DNA of 64,000 bases from Chiloscyllium plagiosum (taxonomy: Eukaryota): contig NC_057719.1 of NCBI RefSeq assembly GCF_004010195.1, positions 49,189,336 to 49,253,335 of the forward strand, given 5' to 3'. The position numbers and the translations under genes are program-made. The notes beneath the pieces are model-generated. The model worked only from the letters and a program-made list of their open reading frames with translations, made no database searches and was not told the DNA's origin. Each line of letters opens with the position of its first letter. Positions within the stretch are counted from its first letter, which is position 1. Positions 7,185 through 62,689 of this stretch are shown piece by piece.

Positions 7185-7403
7185 GGAGGAGAAAGTGAGG
7201 TCTGCAGATGCTGGAGATCAAAGTTGAAACTTTATTGCTGGAACAGCACAGCAGGTCAGGCAGCATCCAGGGAACAGGAGATTCGACGTTTCGGGCACAG
7301 GCCCTTCTTCAGGAATGAAGAAGGGCCTGTGCCCGAAACGTCGAATCTCCTGTTCCCTGGATGCTGCCTGACCTGCTGTGCTGTTCCAGCAATAAAGTTT
7401 CAA
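7185..7403. mobile_element. Penelope family A pLTR fold-back insertion with 14-bp TSD
   Basis: Perfect 88-bp inverted repeat 7224-7311/7316-7403 with a ggaa spacer; caaattgtgaagca is duplicated at 7171-7184 and 7401-7414. Confidence 0.85.
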
Positions 7404-7810
7404 ATTGTGAAGCATGCAGCATTAGAGATAAGTGGTGTGTTGTGCTATGTTGGGATTTGCAGGCATATATGAGCAATTTGAAATTATGTTTGAGCTCAAC
7501 CGTTGGGCATCAGTATGGTGGTAAAAATTAGAATGGAGACTGATTTTTATCCTTTTGAAGCTTTGACCAATTGAGCACCAACTAAACTCTAGTAAAGTCT
7601 GCAGCCCAAAACCACAAGTCAGAGGATAATATGCTTCCTGGATTTACTTTTAGAAAGATGAAAAACTGAGTAAAGTTAGTGTGGTATTTAATTCTTCAGG
7701 ACCACTGTATCCTAAATATTAATTATTAGTGTCTTTCAAAATGAAATATTTGGATAATGCCCTAATGCATGAGTAACCCTAATTTTGATGCTTCATTTTC
7801 ATGCCCATAG

Positions 7811-11000: not shown

Positions 11001-14000
11001 AAAATTATATTCTTAGCTAACTTTGGAAGTGCAAACTAGCAAATCATTAAATTCGACATGCTAGTTTAATAATTTAATCTTTTTCTTCTCTCTCTCCTTC
11101 AAAAAATCAAAAGTATTTTTAACTTCATGGTTGAATGTCACATTTTTCCTTCAGATTAAAGAAGCAGCTGATATCATTCAGAAGTTGCACCTTATTGCTC
11201 AAGAACTGCCCTTTGACAGGTGAGCCAATAATTCATGGTAGAAGCTTGTTTGAAAACTTGAAAGTGGTAGTTTGAAAATTATAAGTGATTTACTTATGAA
11301 AATATTTTTACCCTAATTGAAGAGGATTTAAGAAGTAAGCCATGTTAACAAAGTAACCATACACCACAATGAAGTGCTCTTTTTTTCTTTCTCGTTTTAA
11401 ATAAAATGCTTCTGGGTTCAGTGCAATGATACATTGAAAATCAAATGCTTCACTAGTGAGATCATGACTTTGTTTTAAATGTGTGAATTAAAGATAAGGA
11501 GATCATTTATGGATCCAAATTTTAATTTTTGAGTATGTAGATCTTATTGTCATTTATAGATTATATATGCATGTATCATAAATAGCTCTTCAGTGTTCTG
11601 CACACATCCAGATATTGAATAAAGAGTAAAGGATATGACTCGCGCTTTTGCGATGTATCTTAAATTAATGTTTTTTTTCACCCCTAGGTTTGCAGAAGTG
11701 AAGTCAAAAATTGCAAGTGAGTTATTTTGACTCTTTTTGTTGCTATTACAGAAAACCTCAATTGGCATGTTCTAAAATATGGTTCAGTCACCATTGTTCT
11801 GCCAGCATGACTTAAGAAATGGTGAAATACAATAATAGATTGATGACAAATTGGAGAGATGTCCAACTGTTTTAAAACAAATTGGTTTGCAAATCTCTGT
11901 GGTAAAAACAATGACTGCAGAGGCTGGAAACCAGATTCTGGATTAGTGGTGCTGGAAGAGCACAGCAGTTCAGGCAGCATCCGAGGAGCAGTAAAATCGA
12001 CGTTTCGGGCAAAAGCCCTTCATCAGGAATAAAGGCAGAGAGCCTGAAGGGTGGAATTGTTGCCCTGGGGTTGAAGTGTTCCGAGGCGGAAGATGAGGCG
12101 TTCTTCCTCCAGGCGTCTGGTGGTGAGGGAGCGGCGGTGAAGGAGGCCCAGGACCTCCATGTCCTCGGTAGAGTGGGAGTGGGAGTTGAAATGTTGGGCC
12201 ACGGGGCGGTGTGGTTGATTGGTGCGGGTATCCCAGAGATGTTCGCTAAAGCGCACCGCTAGGAGGCGTCCAGTCTCCCCAATGTAGAGGAGACCACATC
12301 GGGAGCAACGGGTACAATATCAAGTTACGATTGATGGAACTTGCATGTTTTGGCCAGTTTTTATCTGTCTAAAATCTGAATTTGCTACCCCTTTTAATGA
12401 TTTTATAATTATTAGATCTTGAGTACCAAGTAAAGTAAAATGTGGTTTGTGATCTCTGTAGGTAAATATCATGACTTGGAATGCCAGTTGATTCAGGAAT
12501 TTACAAATGCACAGAGAAGAGGTGAAATTTCCAGGATGCGTGAGGTTGCAGCAGTTTTACTTCATTTTAAGGTATTCATTTTATCCGTGTCATTCTGTGG
12601 AGCAGAAAGTTGAAACTGAAAAATTTATGCAGTGTTGGAATTCAACAGATACTTTTTACTTTTTCAACATGTCTACTTTATATTTGTTGAAATATCTTAA
12701 GTGAAATAAGCAGCATTTGTGTCGGTAATTAGCATCCATCCGGCTTTGTATATTACACATCTGTGACGTGTCGGTGTCTCATTCTCTTTTTCTCTCTCCT
12801 CCTCTCTCTTTCCTTCATTTCATTGCTTGGAATCTCGTCAACTGTGACTGCTCAAATTGCATCAGTTTATTCTTTCATGCAGCTTGGAGTGTCACAACTG
12901 GCAAAAGTAATGACCTCAAGCATAAATGTTTGAGACCGAATTAAACTTGGTAAAAGCATTAAAAGACGCTCATGGGTAAAGTTAATTGAGATGATTTGAT
13001 GTGTGTAACTTTTTTTTCTCTTTATACTTGGAACTTGGAGAAGCAAAAAAATTCAATGGGAAAAAGTAAATAGGAAATCTTTGAGTGCCTTGTAACTAAG
13101 TTAGCTATTTCATTTTGTTGCCTCCTTTTGTCTTTTTGCTGCAATTCTGTATTCCACTGAGTTCACATCCAGAATCCTCAACTGCTCCTCATATGATAAA
13201 CCCTTCATTGCTGTGATCATTCTGTAAACTTTCTATGTAACACTTCCAAAGCCAGCACATCCATCCTTCAATATGGGGCACAAAACTGCTCACTGTATTC
13301 CAAATGTGGTCTGTCCAGAGCCTCACTAGTATATCTGTGCTCTGTGGAAATCAGTGCAAACATTGTTTGCCTTTCTTACTGCCAACTGAACCTGCACGTT
13401 AATCTTAAGACAATCCTGAACTTGAACTACCAAGTCACTTTGTGCTTCAGATTTCTGAAGTGTCTCCCTGTTTAATCTACGCCTTTATTTTTCCCATTAA
13501 AGTGCTGAATCTTTCACGTAATCCCATCTGCCACTTCTTTGCCCATGTTTTCAGCCTTCTGCAGCCTCCCACTTCCTGACTCTACCTGTCTGTCCAGCAG
13601 TCTTTGTGTCATCAGCAAACTTAGCAACAATGCCCTCCATTCCTTTGTCCAGTGGGTTAATATATAATGTGAATAGTTGTGTTCCCAACACTGAACAATC
13701 CAAAACTCCACCAGTGACCAGTTGTCATCCCGAAGAGGACATCTTTATTCCCATTCTGCCAGTCAGGAAATTCTCTTTCCATGCCAGTACCTTGCCCCTA
13801 ATGGAATGGGTTCTTATCTTCTGTATGGCACCTTGTTGAAAGTCCTTTGGCAATCCGAATAGATCGTTTGTCTAACTTGTTACCTCCTTCAAAGAATCTT
13901 AATAGATTGATGAAGCTGCGCTGACCTAACCCTATTTTACCAAGCATTTAGAGCCATAGAGTCACAGATGTACGGCACGGAAACAGATTCTTCTGTCCAA

Positions 14001-23000: not shown

Positions 23001-26000
23001 CTATGTTTTCTCACAAATCTGTTTTTTTAAAAAATGGATGTGCTACAGTTTAAAAACAGTAAATATCAAACAACTTATAAGTTCAGTCTTGGAATCTTGA
23101 TCTTTGAGCCAATTCTCTTGTGACACATAGCCAACCCTTGCTTGTTCTGACTTCCTGATTTATCATGATTATCATTAAGGGGTTTAACGTATTTAATTTG
23201 TTTTTAAAATGTAAATTCACCATTATGAACAATTTGCTAGTGTTTGTGATTGCATTTTAATATTTCTACTGCAGAGGTGATTATTCGCTGGGCACTTTCA
23301 CCAGCGATGTGACTGCTGCAGTCAGATTATTGTCACTAACTGTTAGCAGATTCAATATTCACATTGAGTGCTAGAAACTCTTGTCCATTCTATGCCTGTT
23401 TAGAGTTTTATCCGAGATCGATTAGAAGAATGTAAAAAGTCTGATGCAGAAGAATACCTAAAGAATCTGTACGATCTGTATACAAGGTAAGATGTTACCA
23501 GTAATGCCATCTTTTAACTGTAAGAAACTCCTGCTTCTGTTTTAGGCCCTGTAACCAGCATTGATAGATCATTTTTAAAAAAGTATGAAGTCTCAGTCAT
23601 TGACTTCAAGAAATTAAAATATGAATTCCAATGTGTATAATGGGGAGTGATATGAGGGTTAGGGAGGAGGTGACTTATTAATCACTGTGTATCAATCTAC
23701 ATTTAGTTTTTATAGATTAACAACTTACAAAATATTTAATCTCATTTTGATTTGAATTACAATTTGCCAGTGACAAGATTGATATACTGTATCTATTAAG
23801 GTGAACAGAATTTTCCTTTGTTTTTCTCATCTTGTAATTTGTGAGCAGTTGTTTCAGCTACAGTGAGAATGTTCACTTTCTAAACACTCATTTGATCTGT
23901 ATAATGAATATTTCTCAATGTGCAATATTTGTGTCATATTATTATTTTCAAGGTGATTATGTGGGAAGTAAGCTCATAATTTGTCAATGGCAGTTTCTCT
24001 ATTACATATTTAATCAAACCAATCCATAAACTTTCAATGTGCAAGGAAATAAATAACTTATTTTCTGTCTGTTGTAGAAAGTTATCTTAAAACTATTTCC
24101 CTTCTGCCCTTTTTTAGAAAATAACCGGTAACCATTTTTCTGCATACAATGATTTGATTAAGATATTTTGTTCCTGGAACGACCTAAGTTCTTAAGCATT
24201 CAGAGTGAAAAATCCCAGAATTTAAAAAGCAAATGTCTTTTGCAGTCGGTGATTTCCATCAATGGATGGAGTTACACTGTAGCTAGGAGTCAAGATCTGA
24301 CTATATAAAAAGAGCACAACATGATAAAGAGTGCATTAAGAGAATTATTTGAAAGGTGAAAGGAAATATACTGATAATTGACTTTCAGCAACATAAATAC
24401 CTCCTCTTACGTGTGGTTGAAAGAAGGCTCTACCATTGAAAATTTTAAAACAGTGTAGCCAGGGAACTGAGAGGATGGCATGGTGGCTGAGTGGAGAATT
24501 TATTGTAAAGCTTAAAAGAATAGGAAAGAGGGATAAAGTGGTAAATATGAACTACATCCTGAGCTCTCCTCAGCCGAGCGAGTTGTGTTTGAGACTTCAA
24601 TTCCCTTGTAATGGCCAGTATGTTGCACATTGGTTCTTTCCTGGTATGGGTGACTTAACATTTGTATTGTATTTCTTATACACCAACTCTGAAATTCGGT
24701 CCCTCTTAGGTGACAGGTAATTAGGTCTCAAGTCCGGTTCCTCAAATATAGTAAAATAAAACACCGAAGAATTGCAATACTCAAATGAAGAAACTAACCT
24801 GATTAAAGTAAACATTAAGCAACCTTTGGGTTTGAATTATGCATTTGCATTGAGAATTGACACTGTCCTATTCATAGCATCACTTATAAATTTACACACA
24901 GCTTGAAACTTATTATAATCCTAAAATGCTAATGTGGATTCTGAAATCAGAATTTGCAGATAATGGAACTGAAAAACAAAAACAAGCCTTGAATTTGGTA
25001 TAACTTGATAATAGTTTTAACTTGACACGTCAAAAGCTGAATAGTATATATTCCAGCGTTTTAAGAGTCAGGAGGAAATTTGGGAAGCTCTAATGATCTG
25101 TTACAATTGACAATTAAAAAATACTGTCCTTGAGCAAGATGTTAGTTTCAGTACACCATGCTGCAGCATTTTATACAATTTACTTGAGATGTCACTTGCT
25201 CATTAAATGGTCCAAGTGACTGGTCGAGCAATATTTCACGTTGAGTTATGTTGAGTGCATTACAGTTAAGCCTCAAATGTATGCCTGGTAATCAATTCCA
25301 TTATATTACAAAAGATCACAGCAACACTGTCTATTTCATGGATGCCTGAGACATTTTTGTCACTTTTGAAATTAGATTAGATTAGATTACTTACAGTAAG
25401 TAATCTAATCTAATCTAATTTCAAAAGTGACAAAAATGTCTCAGGCATCCATGAAATAGACAGTGTTGCTGTGATCTTTTGTAATATAATGGAATTGATT
25501 ACCAGGCATACATTTGAGGCTTAACTGTAATGCACTCAACATAACTCAATGTGAAATATTGCTCGACCAGTCACTTGGACCATTTAATGAGCAAGTGACA
25601 TCTCAAGTAAATTGTATAAAATGCTGCAGCATGGTGTACTGAAATGATGAAAAGACACTTTATAAATATTAAGAGATTTCTTATATTCTGCGAATGCATG
25701 GGAAATTTTGAGAATAGTTAAGGTATTGAATGGAGGAATGAAAATAATACATAAACATTAGGGGACAAATGTCAGTTTGGATGGAAATGGTTGGGTAGAA
25801 GTGAGGATTTTATAGTCCTATTTCCTATCTACATAATTTGTCTTGACCTCAAACTAGAAATACAATCTGAAAATTTAACAAATGTATCAAACTGGAAGAG
25901 CAAAGCATAAACAGAAAGTGACTATTATATACTGGTGGGCAGGATAATGCCAAAATAAAGTTTCTGGTGGCACGGTGGCACAGTGGTTAGCACTGCTGCC

Positions 26001-29000
26001 TTACAGTGCCAGAGACCCGGATTCAATTCCAGCCTCAGGCGACTGTCTGTGTGGAGTTTGCACATTCTTCCTGTGTCTGCATGGGTTTCCTCCGGGTGCT
26101 TCGGTTTCCTCCCATAGTCCAAAATTGTGCAGGTTAGGTGAATTGGCCATGCTAAATTACCCGTAGTGTTAGGTGTAAGGGAATGGTTCTGGGTGGATTG
26201 CTCTTCGGCGGGTCGGTGTGGACTTGTTGGGCCGAGGGGCCTGTTTCCATACTGTAAGTAATCTAATCTAATGTTAGTAAGGATAAGTGTACTGTACTGT
26301 AATTTGCAAAGAAAAATGGGCAACATTTGTACTCTGCATACATGGAAGTTTACTGAAATTAGCAAAACACGGAGTGGAAAGAGACTGATAAACTTGACGC
26401 TCAATAAATCTCTACAATGCAGAGCATCAATAAACACAGCTATTGGAATGTGTCAGAAATAATTTTAATTCCAGGTGCAGCAATATCCTGCTCAAGTTGT
26501 ATTATTTCTAGATGTCACCACTTTCAGTACTGCGGTCAGTTTTGGTTATTGAAGTATAGGAGACTTTTGGCTATCGGAAACCATACCGAGATCCATGAGT
26601 CTGATTCCTAGTGTTCAAAATTGAGGCAAGAATGGAAGTATTTAAGCTTTTCAGTTTTGCAAAGAGTCACCTGAAAGTTGATAAAGAAATATAGGAAGAA
26701 AACTATTATATATGCTTCTACATATTATTTTATAAAAGTAGGCATTTACTGTTCATCCCCATTTAGTCATAGTCATAGAGATGTACAGTATGGAAACAGA
26801 CCCTTCGGTCCAATCCGTCCATGCCGACCAGATATCTCAACCCAATCTAATCCCACTTGCCAGCACCTGGTCCATATCCCTCCAAACCCTTCCTATTCAT
26901 ATACCCTTCATATTCATATACCCATCCAAATGCCTTTTAAATATTGCAATTGTACCAGCATCCACCACTTCCTCTGGCAGCTCATTCCATACACATACCA
27001 CCCTCTGCATGAAAAGTTGCCCCTTAGGTCTCTTTTATATCTTTCCCCTCTCACCCTAACCTATGCCCTCTAGATCTGGATTTCCCCCACGTCAGGGAAA
27101 AGACTTTGTCTTTTTATCCTATCCATGCCCCTAATGATTTTGTAAACCTCTGTAAGGTCACCCCTCAGTTTCCGACGCTACAGGGAAAACAGCCCCAGCC
27201 CTAGCCGATAGCTCAAATCCTCCAACCCTGGCAACATCCTTGTAAATCTTTTCTGAACCCTTTCAAGTTTCACAACATCTTTCCGATAGGAAGGAGACCA
27301 GAATTGCGCACGCTATTTCAACAGTGGCCTAACCAATGTCCTGTACAGCCGCAACATGACCTCTCAACTCCTGTACTCAATACTCTGACCAATAAAGGAA
27401 AACATATCAAACGCCGCCTTCACTATCCTATCTACCTGCGACTCCACTGAAAAGGAACTATGAACCTGCACTCCAAGGTCTCTTTGTTCAGCAACACTCC
27501 CTAGGACCTTACCATTAAATGTATAAGTCCTACTAAGATTTGCTTTCCCAAAATGCTGCACTTCACATTTATCTGAATTAAACTCCATCTGCCACTTCTC
27601 AGCCCATTGGCCAATCTGATCAAGATCCTGTTGTAATCTGAGGTAATCTTCTTCGCTATCCACTGCATCTCCAATTTTAGTGTCATCTGCAAACTTACTA
27701 ACTATACCTCTTAAGCTCATATCCAAATCATTTATATAAATGACAAATAGTAAAGGACCCAGCACCCATCCTTGTGGCACTCCACTGGTCACAGGCCTCC
27801 AGTCTGAAAAACAACCCTCCACCACCACCCTCTGTCTTCTATCTTTGAGCCAGTTCTGTATCCAAATGGCTAGTTTCCCCTGTATTCCGTGAGATCTAAC
27901 CTTGCTAATCAGTCTCCCATGGGAACCTTGTCAAACGTCTTACTGAAGTCTATATACATCACATCTACTGCTCTGCCCTCATCAATCCTCTTTGTTATTT
28001 CTTCAAAAAACTCAATTAAGTTTGTGAGACATGATTTCCCACGCACAAAGCCATATTGACTATCCCTAATCAGTCCTTGCCTTTCCAAATACATGTACAT
28101 CCTGTCCCTCAGGATTCCTTCCATTTGCCCTTGAAAAGTCAACTCCTTGAATCACTGAAGTTTTTACCTCACTGAAGTCCATGTGGAGTAGGTGAATCCA
28201 CAGTTCAGTTATGGAAGGAGATCTGGGATTTTAGCCCAGTGACTTCAAAGAGCAGCAATCTAGTTCCAATTTGGAATAGCATTTGGCTTGGAGGAGAACT
28301 TAGATTGTTTTCACCTCCATTGCTGCATTCTAAGTGCAAGATCTTAATAGTTTTTATATAAATGCAAGCCTTTATTTATTAATGTCTTTTATGCAGCACA
28401 GGGCACTTCATGATAGCACTTTACAGTTCATGAAGTAATTTTGAAGTATATTTCATTGTTGTAATGTAGAGTACACCGCAAGCTCTCACAAAAAGTATGA
28501 TAATTGCTGGATATATTTTTATGATATTGATTAGGATTAAACATATTTTGGGCACCACAGAGAATACCTCTAATCATCATCACAATAGTGTCATGATGTC
28601 TTGGCAGAACTGCCAGGGTCTCTATTTTCCAAAAGACAGCCCCTCTAAAAGTGAAATACTCTAGTATTCAGTCTGTGTTGATTTTTATTTTTACTTAAGT
28701 TCTGGAATAAAAGTTGAAGAATTTAGGAATGCTATCAGCTGAACCATGATTGCAGAGGTTGACATTTGGAACTACATAAGATACAAGTTAGGTCGCAGCT
28801 TGAGTTTTGTGTATAGTTCTGGTCATCACAAGAGTTGCATAATTGCTCTGGAGAGAATACAAGATTGTTGCCAGCGCTTGAAAATTGCACTGAAGAGGAA
28901 AAGTTGAATAGGCTAAGGTGGTTTTCCTTAAGTCAGGCAAATAATGAGGTAGCCACTGTTGTGCTCAAGAAGTCTGTGCTCCACAAGCAAATTAGAGGGA

Positions 29001-32000
29001 ATGTAGCTCCCTGAGGGTGGTGGTTGGTTGGAGTTCACTGCCTGGTTTGGCATTTGAGGCAGAAACCTTGAATCTGCACTGAAACACTATAACCTGCAAT
29101 GCTAAGTGTTAGTAAATGAGATGAGAATCAGCAGCCAGTTTATTCAGCTGGTGCAGACATGATGATGAGCTGCATGACTTCTTTGTGTTTCTTAATATTT
29201 CCATGTTTAAAGCTTGAAAAGGTTTATCCAAGCTAAGCTGCAGGGATAAAAAAACGGACAGTAACTCAAACTATTGAGAATAAACAATGCTATCCTAGAT
29301 TTTCTTGATGCATTCTGACGGTCACATAGAATGCATTTCCAGATAGCGTCGAGAGGATTAAAAACTTGTTCATTTCAGAAACAATTGGATGTCATAATGA
29401 ATTCATTTTTTTAGACTAGATTAAAGTGAGTTATCTTCCTCAACTGTAGATATCATGCAGCAGTGATCTGTGCTGTTTGTTAGAGAATTATTTCAGTGTC
29501 AGCACTTAGAGTCATAGAGATGTACAGCACGGGAACAGACTGTTTGGTCCAACTCGTCCATGACGACTAGATAGCCTAACCTAAACTAGTCCCATTTGCC
29601 AGCACTTGGCCCATAATCCTCTAAACGCTTCCTATTCAAATACCCATCCAAATGCTTTTTAAATGCTGCAGTTGTACCAGGCTCCTCCACTTCCTCTGGC
29701 AGCTCATTCCATACACATACCACCCTCTGTGTGATAAAGGTTGCCCCTTGGGTCTCTTTCATATCTTTCCCCTCTCGCCCTAAACCTGTGCCCTTTGGTT
29801 CTGGACTCCCCTACCCGAAGGAAAATACTTTGTCTATTTATCCTATCCATGCCCCTCATGATTTTATAAACCTCTATAAGCCTCTGATGCTCCAGGGAAA
29901 ACAGCTCCAGCCTGTTCAGCCTCTCCCTATAGCTCAAACCCTCCAACCCTGGCAACATCCTTGTAAATCTTTTCTGAACCCTTTCAAGTTTCACAAAATC
30001 CTTCCGATAGGAAGGAGATCAGAATTGCACACAGTTTTACAAAATGGCCTAACCAATGTCCTATACAGCCACAATATGACCTCCCAACTCCAATACTCAA
30101 AACTCTGAACAATAAAGGAAAGCACTTGTAAGCCTCTTCAAAATTTGTTAACTCCCACCATTTAGATGATGATTACACTTCCATGACAGCTCTACATCCA
30201 GCTGTTGTTTCCTAGCATATAAATCGGTAAACTGCTTTTAAATTTGCACATTTTAACAGGATTTCTTCTTCAATTTTTCTTGATGCGTATTACATATGAT
30301 TGGAAAAGAAAAACCAAGCACCAGATTCTTGCAAGGCTTATTTTTTATAGGTTACTTAGTGCACCACATCATGACAGTACACTAATATGCTGTGCCTCAA
30401 ATGGTGAGGTACAGGTTTAAATTAAAACAAGCATGGCACTATTCACAGATCGTGGACTTAAACTTCACCTGTTGTCTCTGGCTAATGTGGCAAGCTTAGG
30501 TTGTTTTTTATTCCATAAATGTAAAGGAAGCATGAAAGTCAACTCAACTTGACATTTTTTTAAAAATGCTACTTAGGATTTAGTTGTACATTATTAGCAG
30601 GGGGTTTGAAGCTGGTAATAAATAATCATTTCTTGTAATGTCTCTGCTTTACAGGACCACAAGTTTAGCAAGCAAGTTAGCAGAGTTTGATCTTGGTACT
30701 GATAAACAGACATTTCTGGCAAAGATGATCAAAGGCATTTTCCTTTCATACCTGGAAAATTATATCGAAATTGAGACAGGATACTTGAAAACTAGGAGTA
30801 GCATGGTGTTACAACGCTATTACGATTCCAAAAATCATCAAAAACGGTCCTATGGATCTGGAGGGTAAGTGCAGTAATATAAAGTTTTGATAAAATAGCC
30901 ATGATTAATATTTTCTGATATTTTAATTGTTTTTTATGTTCAGAAGCTCTTGATTTTTCTCAATTTTCAGATTGGATTTTGTTTGTGTATAAAGATACCA
31001 GGTGTATTGTGTGAGACTATTAGATTGAGAATTTAGCCCTGACTTAATCACTGACTTAAATTGACACATGCAAAATTCTACAGTTCAAAGATTCTAAAAT
31101 AAAACCTGAGGTACTTGAACTATTTAACAGTATTCTTAGTCCTAACTATTGGTTAGGACTAAGAGTACTTTGCAATCTATTTCCAGGTCAAGCTTGGGGA
31201 TGGAGGGGAAGCAAACAGGTTTGTGATAAGATAGTAGGAAGGGGAAGTTAAATGATAAAAGGGGCAATGGTGAAAGCCGAAGCTATACGCTAAAGGGGAA
31301 ATTAAGGAAACAATAGTTGCATCTCAAGCATGTGTAAACGAGAGCGCAGAGTCACCCCAATGGCTACAAAACTTAAGGGACAGAGGTTACAATTAAATAT
31401 TGCATTTCAAAAATGAGAGAAAGCAGGAAATACTTTAATTAAAGTCTTGACATGACTAATTTAATACTCCCTGCAATGTTTTGTTCAAAGTGGCCAGTTC
31501 AGTGTGAGCTACTAATAAATTTTAGGCAACCGTTTTTGTGGATTGTTTTAAATGGGATAATTTGTAAATTCTTGACTTTAGCAGGTTCCATATCTAACCT
31601 TCCTTTCCGCTCCAAAAAACTCCCTATTAAACTCAACATTTATATCCTAACTGACTTGACAAACATAAACTTTCCTTCCTCAATCTTTTTGAACTGTCGG
31701 CAACCTTTGACATGGTTAACCAACTCCAACATCACTGTTATGTAGCTGAGTGGACTGCTGCCACACAGTTTTATATGAATCTAATTGAATTGAAACTATT
31801 ACTTCCAATAACTTGCTCTTAAGCAGTTGCCTCTGGAGTCCCCAGAAGCATGTTCCTTTGTCCTTTCCTTTTCTTCTGTAACTGCTATCCCTGTGACAGA
31901 ATCTGGAAGAACGTTAGTAATTCTGACAGGTGCACTAATGACATCTCGCCCCACCTCACCATTACCGCTCATGCCACCTCCACAGTTGCATTTTCAGGTA

Positions 32001-38000: not shown

Positions 38001-41000
38001 CCACCACCGAGGTCAGGCTCACCAGTCTATATTTCCCTGGCTTGTCTTTACTGCCCTTCTTAAATAGTGGCCCCACGTTTGCCAACCTCCAGTCTTCCAG
38101 CACCTCACCTGTCTCTATCGATGATACAAATATCTCAGCAAGAGGCCCAGCAATCACTTCTCTCGCTTCCCACAGAGTTCTCGGGTACACCTGATCAGGT
38201 CCTGGGGATTTATCCACTTTTAACCGTTTCAAGACATCCAGCACTTCCTCCTCTGTAATCTGGACATTTTGCAAGATGTCACCATCTATTTCCCTACAGT
38301 CTATATCTTCCATATCCTTTTCCACAGTAAATACTGATGCAAAATACTCATTTAGTATCTCCCCNNNNNNNNNNNNNNNNNNNNNNNNNNNNNNNNNNNN
38401 NNNNNNNNNNNNNNNNNNNNNNNNNNNNNNNNNNNNNNNNNNNNNNNNNNNNNNNNNNNNNNNNNNNNNNNNNNNNNNNNNNNNNNNNNNNNNNNNNNNN
38501 NNNNNNNNNNNNNNNNNNNNNNNNNNNNNNNNNNNNNNNNNNNNNNNNNNNNNNNNNNNNNNNNNNNNNNNNNNNNNNNNNNNNNNNNNNNNNNNNNNNN
38601 NNNNNNNNNNNNNNNNNNNNNNNNNNNNNNNNNNNNNNNNNNNNNNNNNNNNNNNNNNNNNNNNNNNNNNNNNNNNNNNNNNNNNNNNNNNNNNNNNNNN
38701 NNNNNNNNNNNNNNNNNNNNNNNNNNNNNNNNNNNNNNNNNNNNNNNNNNNNNNNNNNNNNNNNNNNNNNNNNNNNNNNNNNNNNNNNNNNNNNNNNNNN
38801 NNNNNNNNNNNNNNNNNNNNNNNNNNNNNNNNNNNNNNNNNNACCCTATTATTCTTACAGATAGCTGAGATCTCCTTGCAAGTTTGTTTCTCAATTTCTC
38901 TCTGACTATTGGGGGGGGGGGGGGGGGGTCTATAATACAATCCCAATAAGGTGATCATCCCTTTCTTATTTCTCAATTCCACCCAAATAACTTCCCTGGA
39001 TGTATTTCCAGTTTAGTATATTTTGGGTGTCTTTGCAGGATAAGCTTTTGAAAATGAGATTGGTGTTTAGAATAGACATGGTGGTTCAAAACATCTGTTT
39101 CTATGCTGTATGAATCTATGATCTGAAGCCATTTTCATCTGGAAGGTTCATTTCCAGATGTTTCATCACCCTACTAGGGTCTTTGGTGGTCCTCTGGGCG
39201 AAGCACTGCTTTTTTGTAGATGTATTTTGTAAATGACTTTTTTTTTGGGACTAATGTCATTTACAAGATATTGTGCAAGAACTGTAGCAAACACTACATT
39301 GAACAAACAGACAGAAAACTAGCCACCAGGATATGTGAACATAAACTAGCCACAAAATAACATGACCCTCTCTCACTAGTATCCTTACATACAGATAAGG
39401 AAGGACAACACATCCATTCTAGGAAAAACCGAACTGAGACACGTCCGAGAATCCCTAGAAGCATGGCATTTCAACCGAAACTCTATCAGCAAGCACATCG
39501 TGTTTGACCCCATATACCACCCCCTGAGAAAAAGAGCAGGAAATGACATCACCATCCCAAAGAAACCCAAACATATAAATAGGAAGCAGGAATTATCAGC
39601 AGTGCTTCGCCCGGAGGCCCACCGAAGACGTTATAGAGTGACGAAACGTCTGGAAATGAGCCTTCCAGCTCAGCGAGCAAACCTACATGCAGTTCTGATG
39701 TTTCAATCTGCGTTATCAGTGGGTGCTTTGTCTCCAGGTTAGACAGTACATGAGTTCCCAGCCTTGTTCAGTGTTGCATTTTAAGTTTCATCTCCTCTCA
39801 CTACTCAAGCGATTTCCTGTTTAGAAGCTTCTAACATGTCAGAGTTCTAACATGTCTTCAAACTTAATTGCAATGATTCTTTCTTGAGCATGCGAGTAAC
39901 AGTGTAACTGGTCATCGAGGTTCTTGTCACATCTCCGTAATGCCGACATGACTGGCTTCTTTGCCTTTGAATGAAATATTAATTTCAGTTTTGGCTGTTT
40001 TTGTTTATTAGCACTGCTGCCGCACAGCGCCAGGGGCCCAGGTTCAATTCCTGCCTTAGGCGACTGCCTGTGTGGAGTTTGCACATTTTCCCCATGTCTG
40101 GGTTTCCTCCAGGTGCTCCAGTTTCTTCCCACAATCCAAAAATGTGCAGATTAGGTGAATTGGCCATGCTAAATTGCCCATAGTGTTCAGGAATGTGTAG
40201 GTTAGATGCATTAGTCAAGGGTAAATGTAGAGTAATCGGGTGGGGGAGTGGGTTTGGGTGGGATACCCTCCGGAGGGTCGGTGTGGACATGTTGGGCGAA
40301 GGGCTTGTATCTACACTGTAGGGATTCTATGAACACTTGTTTCATGAAACGTGACCAACCTGACTAGTAACATGGTTGTTGTGGCTATTTTAAGTCCATG
40401 GTTTGGTCTTTCTTTTAAATACTATTTCAGCCCATGAAAATCTAAAGCAATAAAATTCAGAACTTAACTGCACTTTTTTTTTATTCACCGTGAAAGTTGC
40501 TTCAAGATTTGTTTATTTAAATGTTCTAGTGACAAGCTCCTCATGTTGTATGCTTCCAAAATCGCAACTCATTTGAAATTCTGCATTCTGTCTGCTCTAA
40601 TTAGAATTATCTTTACCACATACCTCCACTAACAATGCAGATACCAGTTTGATTTTAAATTTAATAAGTTCTCAGCCTTGTGTTTAAATCCTTATGTGGT
40701 CTCACCTCTTGACGTCTAAAATCAACAGCAACAGTTTGTTTTTCTCTCGTACCTTTAACATAGGAAAACATCTCCACATATTAAAATACATCATAAAAGT
40801 GTTAACAAATAAAATTGAAACTGAATTCCATATGCACATATTAGACTAATGACCAGAACCTTGATCAGAAGTCTATTTTAAGGAACATCTTCAAGGAGAG
40901 TGCAGATTTAGCAAGGGTTCCAGAGCTTAGAGCCTTGGCAACTGAATTCACAGCAACAACAATGTGGTGAGGAAAACTGAAGGTACAGATAGGAGAAGGT

Positions 41001-44000: not shown

Positions 44001-47000
44001 TTGGGTAAGGAAGTCCAGAACTAGAGGGCATAGAGTTAAAGATGAGAGGAGAAAGATATAAAAGAGACGTAAGGGACAACTTTTTCATGCAGAGTTTGGT
44101 ATATGTATGTAATGAGCTGCCAGAGGAAGTAGTGGAGGCTAGTATGATTGTAACATTTAAAAGGCATTTGGATGGCTGAAGAAGGGCCTGTGCCCGAAAC
44201 GTCGAATCTCCTGTTCCCTGGATGCTGCCTGACCTGCTGTGCTGTTCCAGCAATAAAGTTTCAACTTGGAGGGATATGGGCCAGGTGCTGGCAGGTTGGA
44301 CTAGATTAGTTTAGGTTATCTGGTTGGCATGGACGACTTGGACCAAACGATCCGTTCCCGTGCTCTACATCTCTATGACTCTAACACATTGTAAATGAAA
44401 ATACATCCAACATTTATTTTCTAAACTCCAAAATCTCCATTCATTTGGATAAATGTCTGTTTGTTTTTGATATCATCTTCACTCTTCTTAATCATATGAC
44501 ATAAATGTTCTTTCTTTAGTTTTAAAAAGCCCAAATTACTACTGGTCAGCCACTTTTAGCTGTTCCAAGTATCTCGCTCTATTCCAACAGTTTTGAGAAT
44601 AACAAATTCCATTTTGATTTATTCCAGTCACGTACCTAAATACAGTGAAAATGTTTGTTTTGCAAGCAGTGCAGGCAGCTCATAGCAAACAGGGACATTC
44701 AGATCATGGGGTGCTTAGAGCGAGGCACAGGAGGTGCGCAAAGCAAGATCAGTATTTGAAGTTAGATCCATTCAGCAGTCTGATAACAGCAAGGAAGAAG
44801 CTGTTCTTGAACCAGTTGGCATGTGTGTTCAAGCTTCTGTATTTTCTGCCTGATGGAAGAGATTGGGAGAGAGCATTGCCAGGGTGGGAGGGATCTTTGA
44901 CAATTTTGGCCACCTTTCCATGGCAATGAGAAGTGTAAATGAAGTCCATGGATGGGAGGTTGGCTTCCTTAATGGTCTGGGCTGTGCGCAGAACATTTTG
45001 TAGTTCCTTACAATTCTGTACAGAATAGTTGCCGTCCCAGACCGTTATGCACCCGGATAGAATGCTTTCTGTGGTGCACTTGTAAAAGTTGATGAGGATC
45101 CTTATGGACATGCTGAATTTCCTAAGCTGCCTGAAGAAGAAGCGGCATTGTTATGCTTTATTGACCATTGCATCTATGTGGAAGGACCAAGTCAGATTTG
45201 CTGGTTATCGTCACTCCTTGGAACTTGACATTCTTGACTGTCTCCACCTCTGCTCCGTTGATGTAGACAGGGGCATGTCCACTGCCTTCCTTCCTGAAAT
45301 CAATGATCAGTTCTTTTGTTTGCTGACATTGAGAAAGAGCTTGTTATCATTGCACCACAGCACCAAGCACTCTGTCTCCTTCCTATATTCTGACTCATCA
45401 TTGTTTGATATCCGTCCTACTGTGATGGTGTCATCAGCAAACTTTTATAGATGGTATTTGTTCGGAATTTGGCTGCACAGTTGCAGGTGTGCAGGGATTA
45501 CAGTAGAGGGCTGAGAACACCTCCTTGCAGGACACCAGTGTTGAGGGTGCAGGGCACCACTGTTAAGGTTACAATTTCGCAAAAGCCTTTTGCAGGGGAG
45601 GTGGGGTGGTTAACACAGGAGCGTGGGAAGTGGGAGTATGCAATTCAGCTCTTCAGGCCCACTCTGCAATTTAATGTGATTATGGCTGATCTTGTCCTGA
45701 TCTCAACTGCAATTTCCTGCCTGCTCCCCAACTCTCTTTATCCCAGTTTTCATCAGAAATGTATCTGTTTCTTTCTTGAATCTATTGATTGATTCTGTCT
45801 CCACCGTACTCCTACAGTGAATTCCACAGATTCACCACCCTCTGAGAAGTAGTTTCTCCACATCTCAGTTTTGCACCTACCTCCTCTCACATTATATCTA
45901 TGTCCTCTTGTTCAAGACCGTCCCATAAGGTGGATGTTGACCAGATGATTCCCCCTTATCAATTGCCTTCAGCATTTGTAGACCTCAATCAGATTCCACC
46001 CCCCACCCGCCTCCATTCCCCATTCTTCTGATTTCCAGAGAGTACGAGTCTAAGTTATTCAACCATTCCTTGTACAACAGCCCTTTTATCCCTGGAATCA
46101 ACCTTGTGAACCTCCTCTGAACTGCCTCCAGTGCCACCACATCCTTCCTCAAGAAGACCAAAACTGAGCATGATATTCTAAAAGTGGTCTCACTAATGTC
46201 TTCTATAATTGTAACAACACTTCTTTACTCTATGGTCCACTTTTCTTGCAATAAATGCCAGGATTCCATTTGCCTTTCTTATTATAAGCTGCACCTGCAT
46301 ACCTACTTTCTGCAATTCATGCACAAAGATGTCCAGATCCCTCTGCACCGACGCACTTTGAGCCTGCTTGTCATTTAAATAATAATTTGCTCTTTTATTT
46401 TTGTGGCTAGAATGGACAATCTCATACTTACCTACATTAAACTCCATCTGCTAGATTCTGGCCCATCTCCTAGCCTAACACTATCCATCTAAACCCTTTT
46501 ATCCTCATCGCTACCTGCTTTCCCACCTATTTTATTATCATCTGTGAACTTTGCATTTACATGCTGTTCCTGCTTGCAGATAATTTATACGGATTGTCAA
46601 TAGTTAAGGTCTAAAAACTGAACCTTGCGGCAACCCACTAGTTACAGTTCACCTTCCAGAGAAGAACCCCATTTATCCTCACCCTCTGCTTTGTCAGTCA
46701 GCTGATCATCTACCCTACGCCCTCTCCTGGATCAGTGTTTTATGTGACACCTTGTCAAATGCCTTCTGGAAGTCTAGATATACAACATCCCCAGGATCAT
46801 CCTCATCTTCCTTGCTGGTTACAGGCTCAAAGTACGCTAGCAAGTTTGTCAAGCATGACTTGCTGGTGTGGTAAGCCATATCAGTGGGCTTTACCATTTC
46901 ACTTGAATTATCTCTCCTGAAATATTTAAGCATGAGTAGAAACTTTCATCTCTGAAGCCATGTTAACATGTGTGTATTGGTTCTTATCATTGTAATGATT

Positions 47001-61618: not shown

Positions 61619-61930
61619 TTAGATTAGATTACTTACAGTGTGGAAACAGGCCCTTCGGCCCAACAAGGCCACACCTCCCCGCCGAAGCGCAACCCACCCA
61701 TACCCCTACATGTACCCCTTACCTAACACCACGGGCAATTTAGCATGGCCAATTCACCTGACATGCACATCTTTGGACTGTGGGAGGAAACCGGAGCACC
61801 TGGAGGAAACCCACGCAGACAATGGGAGAACGTGCAAACTCCACACAGACAGTCGCCTGAGGCGGGAAATGAACCCGGGTCTCTGGCGCTGAGGCAGCAG
61901 TGCTAACCACTATGCCACCGTGCCGCCCAC
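61619..61930 (-). mobile_element. HE1-type SINE, full length
   Basis: ttagattagattacttacagtg tail through gcagcagtgctaaccactatgccaccgtgccgccc head. Confidence 0.85.
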
Positions 61931-61972: not shown

Positions 61973-62571
61973 GGAAATGTGTTGCTGGAAAAGCGCAGCA
62001 GGTCAGGCAGCATCCAGGGAACAGGAGAATCGACATTTCGGGCATAAGCCCTTCTTCAGGAATGAATAATGAGGAAAGTTTGTCCAGCAGGCTAAGATAA
62101 AAGGTAGGGAGGAGGGACTTGGGGGAGGGGTGTCGGAAATGTGATAGGTGGAAAGAGGTCAAGGTGAGGGTGAAAGGTCAGACTGGGGTGGGGCGGAGAG
62201 GTCGGGAAGAAGATTGCAGGTTAGGAAGGCGGTGCTGAATTCGATGGATTTGACTGAGACAGGGTGGGGGGAGGGGAAATGAGGAAACTAGTGAAATCCG
62301 AGTTCATCCCTTGTGGTTGGAGGGTTCCTAGGCGGAAGATGAGGCGTTCTTCCTCCAACCGTCGTTTTGTTGTGGTCTGACGATGGAGGAGTCCAAAGAC
62401 CTGCATATCCTTGGTGGAGTGGGAGGGGGAATTGAAATGTTGAGCTACAGGGTGGTTGGGTTGGTTGGTCCGGGTGTCCCAGAGGTGTTCTCTGAAACGC
62501 TCCGCAAGTAGCCGGCCTGTCTCCCCAATATAGAGGAGGCCACATCGGGTGCAGAGGATGCAATAGATGAT
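61973..62571 (-). mobile_element. Penelope-like family A, GIY-YIG domain plus pLTR, 11-bp TSD
   Basis: IIYCILCTRCGLLYIGETGRLLAERFREHL; atcagtgagct at 61962-61972 and 62572-62582. Confidence 0.9.
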
Positions 62572-62689
62572 ATCAGTGAGCTTCAGGTGAAGCACAGGTG
62601 TTATGTTCTGCTTTCTATTTGTGCTTAAGTCTCCTTGGGTTGGTGATGTCATTTTATGTTTTGCTGATAAGAACAGGAAGTTTTGTTAA

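Follow-up and report, generated by a model that had tools for sequence, protein, structure and literature searches.

Inverted copies of DNA that arise when a 3' end folds back on itself are known from both retrotransposition and break repair. Among junctions made by the R2 protein, snap-back that precedes 5' joining has a class name of its own (PMC11371274), and L1 sites yield hairpin or foldback outcomes as well as two inverted duplications on the reciprocal end that formed via 2-bp hairpins (PMC11702581; 10.1101/2024.12.14.628481). Small inverted duplications are frequent in yeast repair and in human genomes: in the accessible parts of the reports, fold-back inverted duplications in yeast measure 5-34 bp (PMC11724301) and inverted duplications in humans have a median of 284 bp (PMC12350158). 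Here we describe a palindrome in an intron of Chiloscyllium plagiosum that has the 3' tail of a SINE at its axis. Its probable origin is a single retrotransposition event that was aborted: the cDNA would have folded back and served as primer for synthesis along its own strand, leaving a 266-bp insertion composed of an inverted host copy and the doubled tail.

The locus lies in a 64,000-nt stretch of genomic DNA, referred to here as the window, whose numbering is used throughout. A near-perfect 499-bp palindrome with one CpG-type mismatch had been predicted from the sequence, and this is what we find: two arms of 249 nt each, 25146-25394 and 25396-25644, flank a single A at 25395. The sole mismatch between them sets G at 25240 against T at 25550, a C-to-T change on the plus strand at a CpG. 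Pairing ends at 25145/25645, with none farther out. In each arm, 225 bp is host intron rather than tail, and a query of 223 arm bases has two matches in the 3.56-Gb genome, both within the palindrome locus. The centre (25372-25418, not assigned to a strand) holds the local tRNA-headed SINE's 3' terminus twice, head to head, with three TTAGA-type units on each side of the axis at 25395. It is identical to the 3' terminus of one SINE copy in the window over 23/23 nt (26250-26272) and to that of another over 21/21 nt (61619-61639). The original prediction had described the centre as a SINE 3' terminus without a body and about 225 bp of each arm as ordinary intron, and both descriptions stand. The 21 nt of tail cannot be assigned to a SINE as opposed to a LINE with the same tail, as it is too short to tell them apart.

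The state of the locus before the insertion can be read from two related organisms, B and C. Each has one contig in which 24700-25147 runs straight into 25414 and onward, with no letters in between (X9 record 24 and X19 record 9). These contigs differ from the window at 45/1030 and 50/1035 bases, respectively. Since the relatives pass from 25147 to 25414 without a break, the ancestral intron sequence is that of the right arm, and the insert consists of the left arm and the doubled tail, 25148-25413. This insertion of 266 bp, which has no strand of its own, holds the inverted right-flank copy and the doubled SINE tail, and its ends can slide by 2 nt. The derived left arm (25146-25394, minus strand) reads as 225 bp of host sequence followed by antisense tail; its stretch 25184-25315 is without cover in organisms B and C. 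The right arm (25396-25644, plus strand) is new tail up to 25413 and ancestral intron from 25414, and it runs on into downstream DNA in both relatives. Comparison with the empty site shows that no host base was lost at insertion. Neither tail nor second arm is present in organisms B and C, matching the expectation, set out beforehand, that the orthologous intron would hold a single arm and no tail. The first host bases, TCTAAT at 25414-25419 (plus strand), equal one tail unit and were already in the empty site, where they probably served as priming microhomology. At the outer junction, 4 nt of microhomology (TTTC, 25146-25149, plus strand) are common to the left flank and to the end of the copied arm at 25641-25644 and may have served in end joining. 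A full-length neighbouring SINE of the same family (25967-26271, plus strand) predates the palindrome and is outside the event, because the contigs of organisms B and C that show the empty site include its 5' start.

The insertion postdates the split from organisms B and C and, provided that it arose a single time, predates the divergence of the window haplotype from a second one. The second haplotype comes from runs X1-X3, all of one sample (S1); as assembled from X1, it differs from the window at 13/906 flanking bases. In each of the three runs we recovered a contig across the left junction to 25198, another from 25592 across the right junction, and a collapsed arm contig of 226 bp at 1.7-2.0 times the flank depth (14.4/7.3, 10.4/6.2 and 13.5/8.1). 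Each run also gave a 74-bp contig across the centre with an exact match to 25380-25425; its first 28 letters were unplaced on the window in 3/3 runs, and the left tail of sample S1 may differ from that of the window. The short reads of this sample thus hold both arms, which answers the concern that only one arm might exist in raw reads, with the scope that no single read or contig spans all 499 bp and that runs X5 and X7, from two other individuals, have no cover on the arms. Sample S1 differs from the window at 25233, 25239 and 25622, which we read as mismatches between its own arms, with heterozygosity as the alternative; the mismatch at 25550 is absent from its contigs. Arm-to-arm gene conversion was suggested by C25239T in X1 and was dropped when X3, of the same sample, proved to have A25233G instead, a pattern that fits an assembler choosing between differing arms. 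The arms of S1 show 4 differences over about 452 bp, an unremarkable number given the 6.5 that haplotype divergence would predict (P 0.22). Position 25550 is C in organism B and T in organism C, indicating that this CpG has decayed more than once.

We propose the following course of events. A CR1-group LINE enzyme carrying SINE RNA would nick the minus strand at 25414 and prime on the host copy of one tail unit at 25414-25419. Reverse transcription would halt after about 18-30 nt, and the 3' end of the cDNA would then pair with itself over 2-3 nt, allowing a polymerase to copy back through the tail and 225 bp of right flank while the other strand of that flank was resected or displaced. The new 3' end would anneal to the left flank via 4 nt, and the gap would be filled. 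Support for this snap-back model comes from the empty site lacking both tail and second arm, from recurrence of the arrangement at 17/58 loci, and from strand polarity in agreement with the model at 6/6 informative sister loci. An aborted target-primed reverse transcription followed by copy-back was the original prediction too. Its core is strengthened by these three results; its strand and its cDNA length are not sustained, and the centre base in the assembly is not the one expected from a simple fold. The plus-strand string that it quoted as cDNA is the wrong strand, since with an ancestral right arm the first-strand cDNA is the minus strand, and the roughly 27 nt of cDNA that it assumed becomes about 18-21 nt of added sequence, as the last tail unit (25414-25419) was already host DNA.

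If snap-back synthesis can follow an aborted insertion, similar scars might be found at other tails in the genome. The exact SINE tail occurs in 29,893 copies genome-wide. All 20 tails that we inspected, a non-random sample in which 19 were early matches on contig 1 and one was a deliberately picked variant, have at least 54 nt of SINE body, and 15/20 are near full length, so orphan tails are not the norm. A search for head-to-head tails with gaps of up to 24 nt gave 78 matches, of which 50 of 78 were taken in; further searches gave 67 matches, all taken in, and searches with longer gaps gave 56, of which 50 of 56 were taken in. For the palindrome's own tail subfamily, the head-to-head search found 12 matches spread over 8 loci, and the control had none. 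In two head-to-head searches the control count of 41 reflects a tail-to-tail arrangement and is not a chance level. After removal of repeat hits of one locus and of five paralogous copies, and with loci found solely by three of the searches, the subfamily search among them, left out, we count 58 independent events, a lower bound because two exact tail units were required on each side.

Palindromes centred on the SINE tail therefore occur elsewhere in the genome, as had been anticipated: inverted flank of at least 12 bp beyond the tails is present at 17/58 loci, the remaining 41/58 having less than 12 bp. Eight of the 58 have at least 60 bp, namely 225 bp at the EXOC5 palindrome, which is the longest, and 146, 136, 108, 107, 95, 85 and 62 bp. 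At the 16 sister loci the flank copies range from 12 to 146 bp. One of these sister loci, L082, has the same layout as the EXOC5 locus, with an ancestral right arm, no loss and short outer microhomology, and the inverted copies of L010, L027 and L037 are backed by a surviving direct duplication (39-66 bp). Locus L006 adjoins an assembly gap. Among the doubled tails, long flanking direct duplications are frequent, with lengths of 34-69 bp at L025, L029, L031, L032, L037, L039, L096, L010 and L027. These are longer than the 5-15 bp duplications reported with LINE inserts in the accessible text of an earlier study (PMC4245944). We also observed an older tail-centred palindrome with arms of about 135 bp that has been amplified to at least 13 copies inside a larger repeat (L022, L023, L059, L067, L069, L071, L074-L078, L099 and L100). 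At L087, L089 and L034 the sense tail after the fold-back continues as a pentamer array (16 to over 25 units), which may reflect slippage or an expansion at a later time.

The snap-back model makes a prediction about strand: the longer antisense half of the centre, which resembles the cDNA, should continue from the ancestral arm. Polarity is as predicted at every locus that has an asymmetric centre and an identified ancestral arm (6/6 informative loci; by coin toss the chance is 1 in 64). The ancestral arm was identified from the target-site direct duplication behind the inverted copy at L010 and L037, and from alignment to intact repeat copies at L028 and L038 (left arm ancestral) and at L082 and L083 (right arm ancestral). 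Polarity was readable in this way at 6 of the 16 sister loci; L027 agrees weakly, and L080, which is unsettled, and 8 others were left out. Junction BLAST searches returned nothing at 12/16 sister loci.

The halves of the EXOC5 palindrome are symmetric except for the centre base, which is A on the plus strand and T on the minus strand. This is the strand opposite to that predicted by simple snap-back, which would place A on the minus strand, and a 1-nt loop at the centre is sterically unlikely. Several routes could lead to the observed base. With arms of 249 bp, the assembly may have the centre in the wrong orientation; an assembly gap of 478 N at 38365-38842, next to a fragment of CR1-like reverse transcriptase, hints that the window was scaffolded from short reads. 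A snap-back centre such as those of L013, L040, L054 and L102 would possibly give the observed one on losing an 11-nt loop flanked by two AC repeats, and a later inversion or mutation of the centre is another possibility. At L042 a similar centre is on a strand that is certainly cDNA. A tail template carrying A in place of T was considered as the source of the base and set aside as too rare, one such copy occurring among the first 100 of 29,893.

The recurrence and polarity of these loci also bear on other explanations. One unlikely alternative divides the history into two steps, in which a small hairpin of doubled tail went in first and fold-back at this site, at a later replication fork or break, copied 225 bp of flank before returning to the template. 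The 41/58 doubled tails with less than 12 bp of inverted flank demonstrate that such seeds exist, and L001 has the same centre as the EXOC5 palindrome without a flank copy. Microhomology-mediated fold-back is general at breaks, as far as the accessible parts of two reports describe it (PMC11724301, PMC10766186), and a two-step history places no constraint on the centre base. It predicts, however, no link between the polarity of the cDNA and the side that was copied, and that link is present at all 6 informative loci. Nor is an intermediate allele present among organisms B and C and sample S1, a small sample.

A second alternative, which we judge improbable, keeps the single event and changes how it ended. 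Here the snapped-back cDNA would close into a hairpin by ligation to the opposite strand; replication of this hairpin, or a nick 249 nt from its tip, would precede joining to the left flank. Ligation followed by opening of the hairpin yields the observed centre base directly, placing A on the plus strand as in the assembly, and a route of this kind has been proposed for L1 foldbacks (PMC11702581). Against it, the second break must fall exactly 249 nt away and the left end must be unharmed, no host base having been lost; the sister loci, moreover, show the other polarity.

Head-to-head tails could also come from two cDNAs rather than one. At L093 (G000:C39:23087620-23087696) the tails of two SINE subfamilies are joined head to head within the stem-loop, and this difference in subfamily implies that two RNAs primed at one site and that two-ended priming also yields head-to-head tails. 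L093 may fit twin priming of the L1 type. For the EXOC5 locus, the corresponding proposal is that replication had doubled the broken end, that a cDNA primed on each of the copies, that the two cDNAs annealed by their 3' ends, and that one copy was later trimmed to 249 bp. Priming by two RNAs at one site is possible, as L093 demonstrates, identical ends paired over the centre would leave an A:A mismatch resolvable either way, and tethering of sister ends is the second model in the L1 study (PMC11702581). The proposal nevertheless requires two primings at the same base, equal tail lengths on both sides and a further break, and the other 16 loci have flank copies of 12-146 bp, most copies in the class being short; we regard it as very improbable. 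L1-type twin priming at the EXOC5 palindrome itself was rejected, as 225 of the 249 bp in each arm are host intron and not element.

An assembly or library fold-back artefact, or a MITE, is largely refuted: although no read or contig crosses the 499 bp and X5 and X7 lack cover on the arms, three runs of a divergent haplotype with its own arm differences hold both junctions, an arm at double depth and a centre contig, the arm is single-copy, the right arm is ancestral intron in two relatives, and no target duplication surrounds the whole. A fold-back DNA transposon or MITE was in particular discarded because the arms, with 2 matches that are both at the locus, are not multicopy, as had been proposed for checking, and because the right arm is present in the empty site.

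Snap-back of an unfinished cDNA leaves a readable record of where reverse transcription stopped, and we used the 58 events to locate these points. The antisense half passes a fixed 5-nt anchor in 23/58 events, and 12/23 of these stop 12-15 nt from the anchor. The reachable range is about 5-45 nt, and variants such as L090, L092 and L093 were left out of the count. The common stop point is just before a stem with a GAAG loop in the SINE 3' end, which is predicted in 1/2 SINE copies folded (z -2.67 and -0.83). The third pair of the stem is G-C in the SINE and A-T in three LINE copies of the window, a compensatory change. Comparison of the SINE 3' ends at 26230-26250 and 61640-61661 with the LINE ends at 26811, 36705 and 42326 shows that the stem is common to all and that the terminal repeats differ. 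Stem-loops at the 3' end have been described for stringent LINE/SINE pairs (PMC3747384). We infer that reverse transcription would stall at the 3' stem; short products may have an advantage regardless. That the stops gather at the stem suggests the enzyme rather than host repair as the cause of 5' truncation.

The host gene is EXOC5/Sec10 on the plus strand, identified by Pfam Sec10 matches on four exons. The palindrome sits between an exon at about 23404-23485 and another inside the ORF 30626-30865, in what we take to be intron 10 by human exon numbering. In EXOC5 pre-mRNA the scar would fold into a 248-bp RNA stem, for which the computed fold gives -444 kcal/mol. Such a hairpin would be a putative substrate of ADAR, Dicer or MDA5, and the DNA might form a cruciform, as the original prediction had suggested. 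No Rfam family matches 25000-26400 at gathering score, so that no known structured-RNA family (miRNA or endo-siRNA) is found there, and the single-cell RNA run X22, of which about 6% was sampled, placed 0 reads, a result that carries no weight either way. The palindrome is probably a neutral intronic scar and the locus without function. It is a more doubtful proposal that SINE reverse transcription stalls at the base of its 3' recognition stem and snaps back to leave spacerless, heritable palindromes of up to 500 bp, that these form a recurrent germline source of perfect dsRNA hairpins from unique intron, and that the EXOC5 allele, carried on two divergent haplotypes, is edited or diced in pre-mRNA.

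A second spacer-poor palindrome lies at 7221-7406 of the window, with 91-nt arms, a 4-nt spacer and an arm 99% like the repeat end at 44176-44270; a direct duplication of about 13 bp is present on both sides. It presumably represents a Penelope-type end with a hammerhead-like core; Rfam gave generic hairpin matches alone, below gathering score. A weak GIY-YIG match at 62224-62685 (minus strand; 21.4 bits, below the 22.6 cut-off) has a similar remnant near 12026-12319 (minus strand), and both are putative pieces of a Penelope-like endonuclease.

The value of these observations lies in the class and its stop-site signal more than in the single locus. Fold-back synthesis at an incomplete retrotransposition site has until now been known mainly from cell assays and tumours, and the EXOC5 allele offers a record of it that is natural and inherited. 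Dozens of such fossils with readable stop points make the cause of 5' truncation, enzyme stall or host repair, testable, and the class makes the origin of long spacerless palindromes testable as well. As these scars contain almost no element sequence, their origin would escape repeat annotation. A literature search that lacked most subscription papers and supplements, and does not show absence from print, met no description, for sharks or for SINE tails, of heritable and recurring palindromes that have a SINE tail at the axis and a copy of the primed flank. The SINE of the window and its tail are named in neither of two related reports, as far as their accessible text goes (PMC5499810, PMC13343379). 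Among described pairs, the SINE and LINE of the window resemble, by description, the HE1 V-SINE and HER1 LINE of sharks and rays, in which a tRNA-headed SINE shares its 3' part with a CR1-like LINE, as the window SINE and LINE share the 3' stem (PMC3747384). A point of difference is that the window LINE copies end in another terminal repeat.

The mechanism that we favour is not new in kind; the palindrome departs from the cases of snap-back and inverted duplication cited here in its heritable, tail-centred form. In insertions made by the R2 protein (PRINT), likewise, the cDNA 3' end primes on its own strand or on nearby target DNA before the 5' junction forms (PMC11371274). PRINT uses an engineered R2 in human cells, with long cDNAs inserted into rDNA, whereas the EXOC5 palindrome is a natural inherited allele in which a cDNA of about 20 nt was copied through the tail into 225 bp of flank (PMC11371274). 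L1 foldbacks share self-annealing over about 2 nt at a retrotransposition break and the resulting inverted copy of adjacent DNA (10.1101/2024.12.14.628481, PMC11702581). The L1 inverted duplications are on the reciprocal end, beside the L1 insert, in clones and tumours; at EXOC5 it is the primed end that was copied, with the cDNA at the axis (10.1101/2024.12.14.628481, PMC11702581). Zebrafish L2 LINEs, which are CR1-group elements, also add bases at the 5' junction templated from flanking or element DNA. These additions amount to several nucleotides, and long inverted copies are not described in the accessible text, in contrast to the 225-bp copy at EXOC5 (PMC4245944, PMC4760211). The fold-back duplications of yeast and humans are alike in size, microhomology junctions and geometry, and the accessible parts of those reports describe no retroelement tail at the axis (PMC11724301, PMC12350158), which is where the EXOC5 palindrome carries one.
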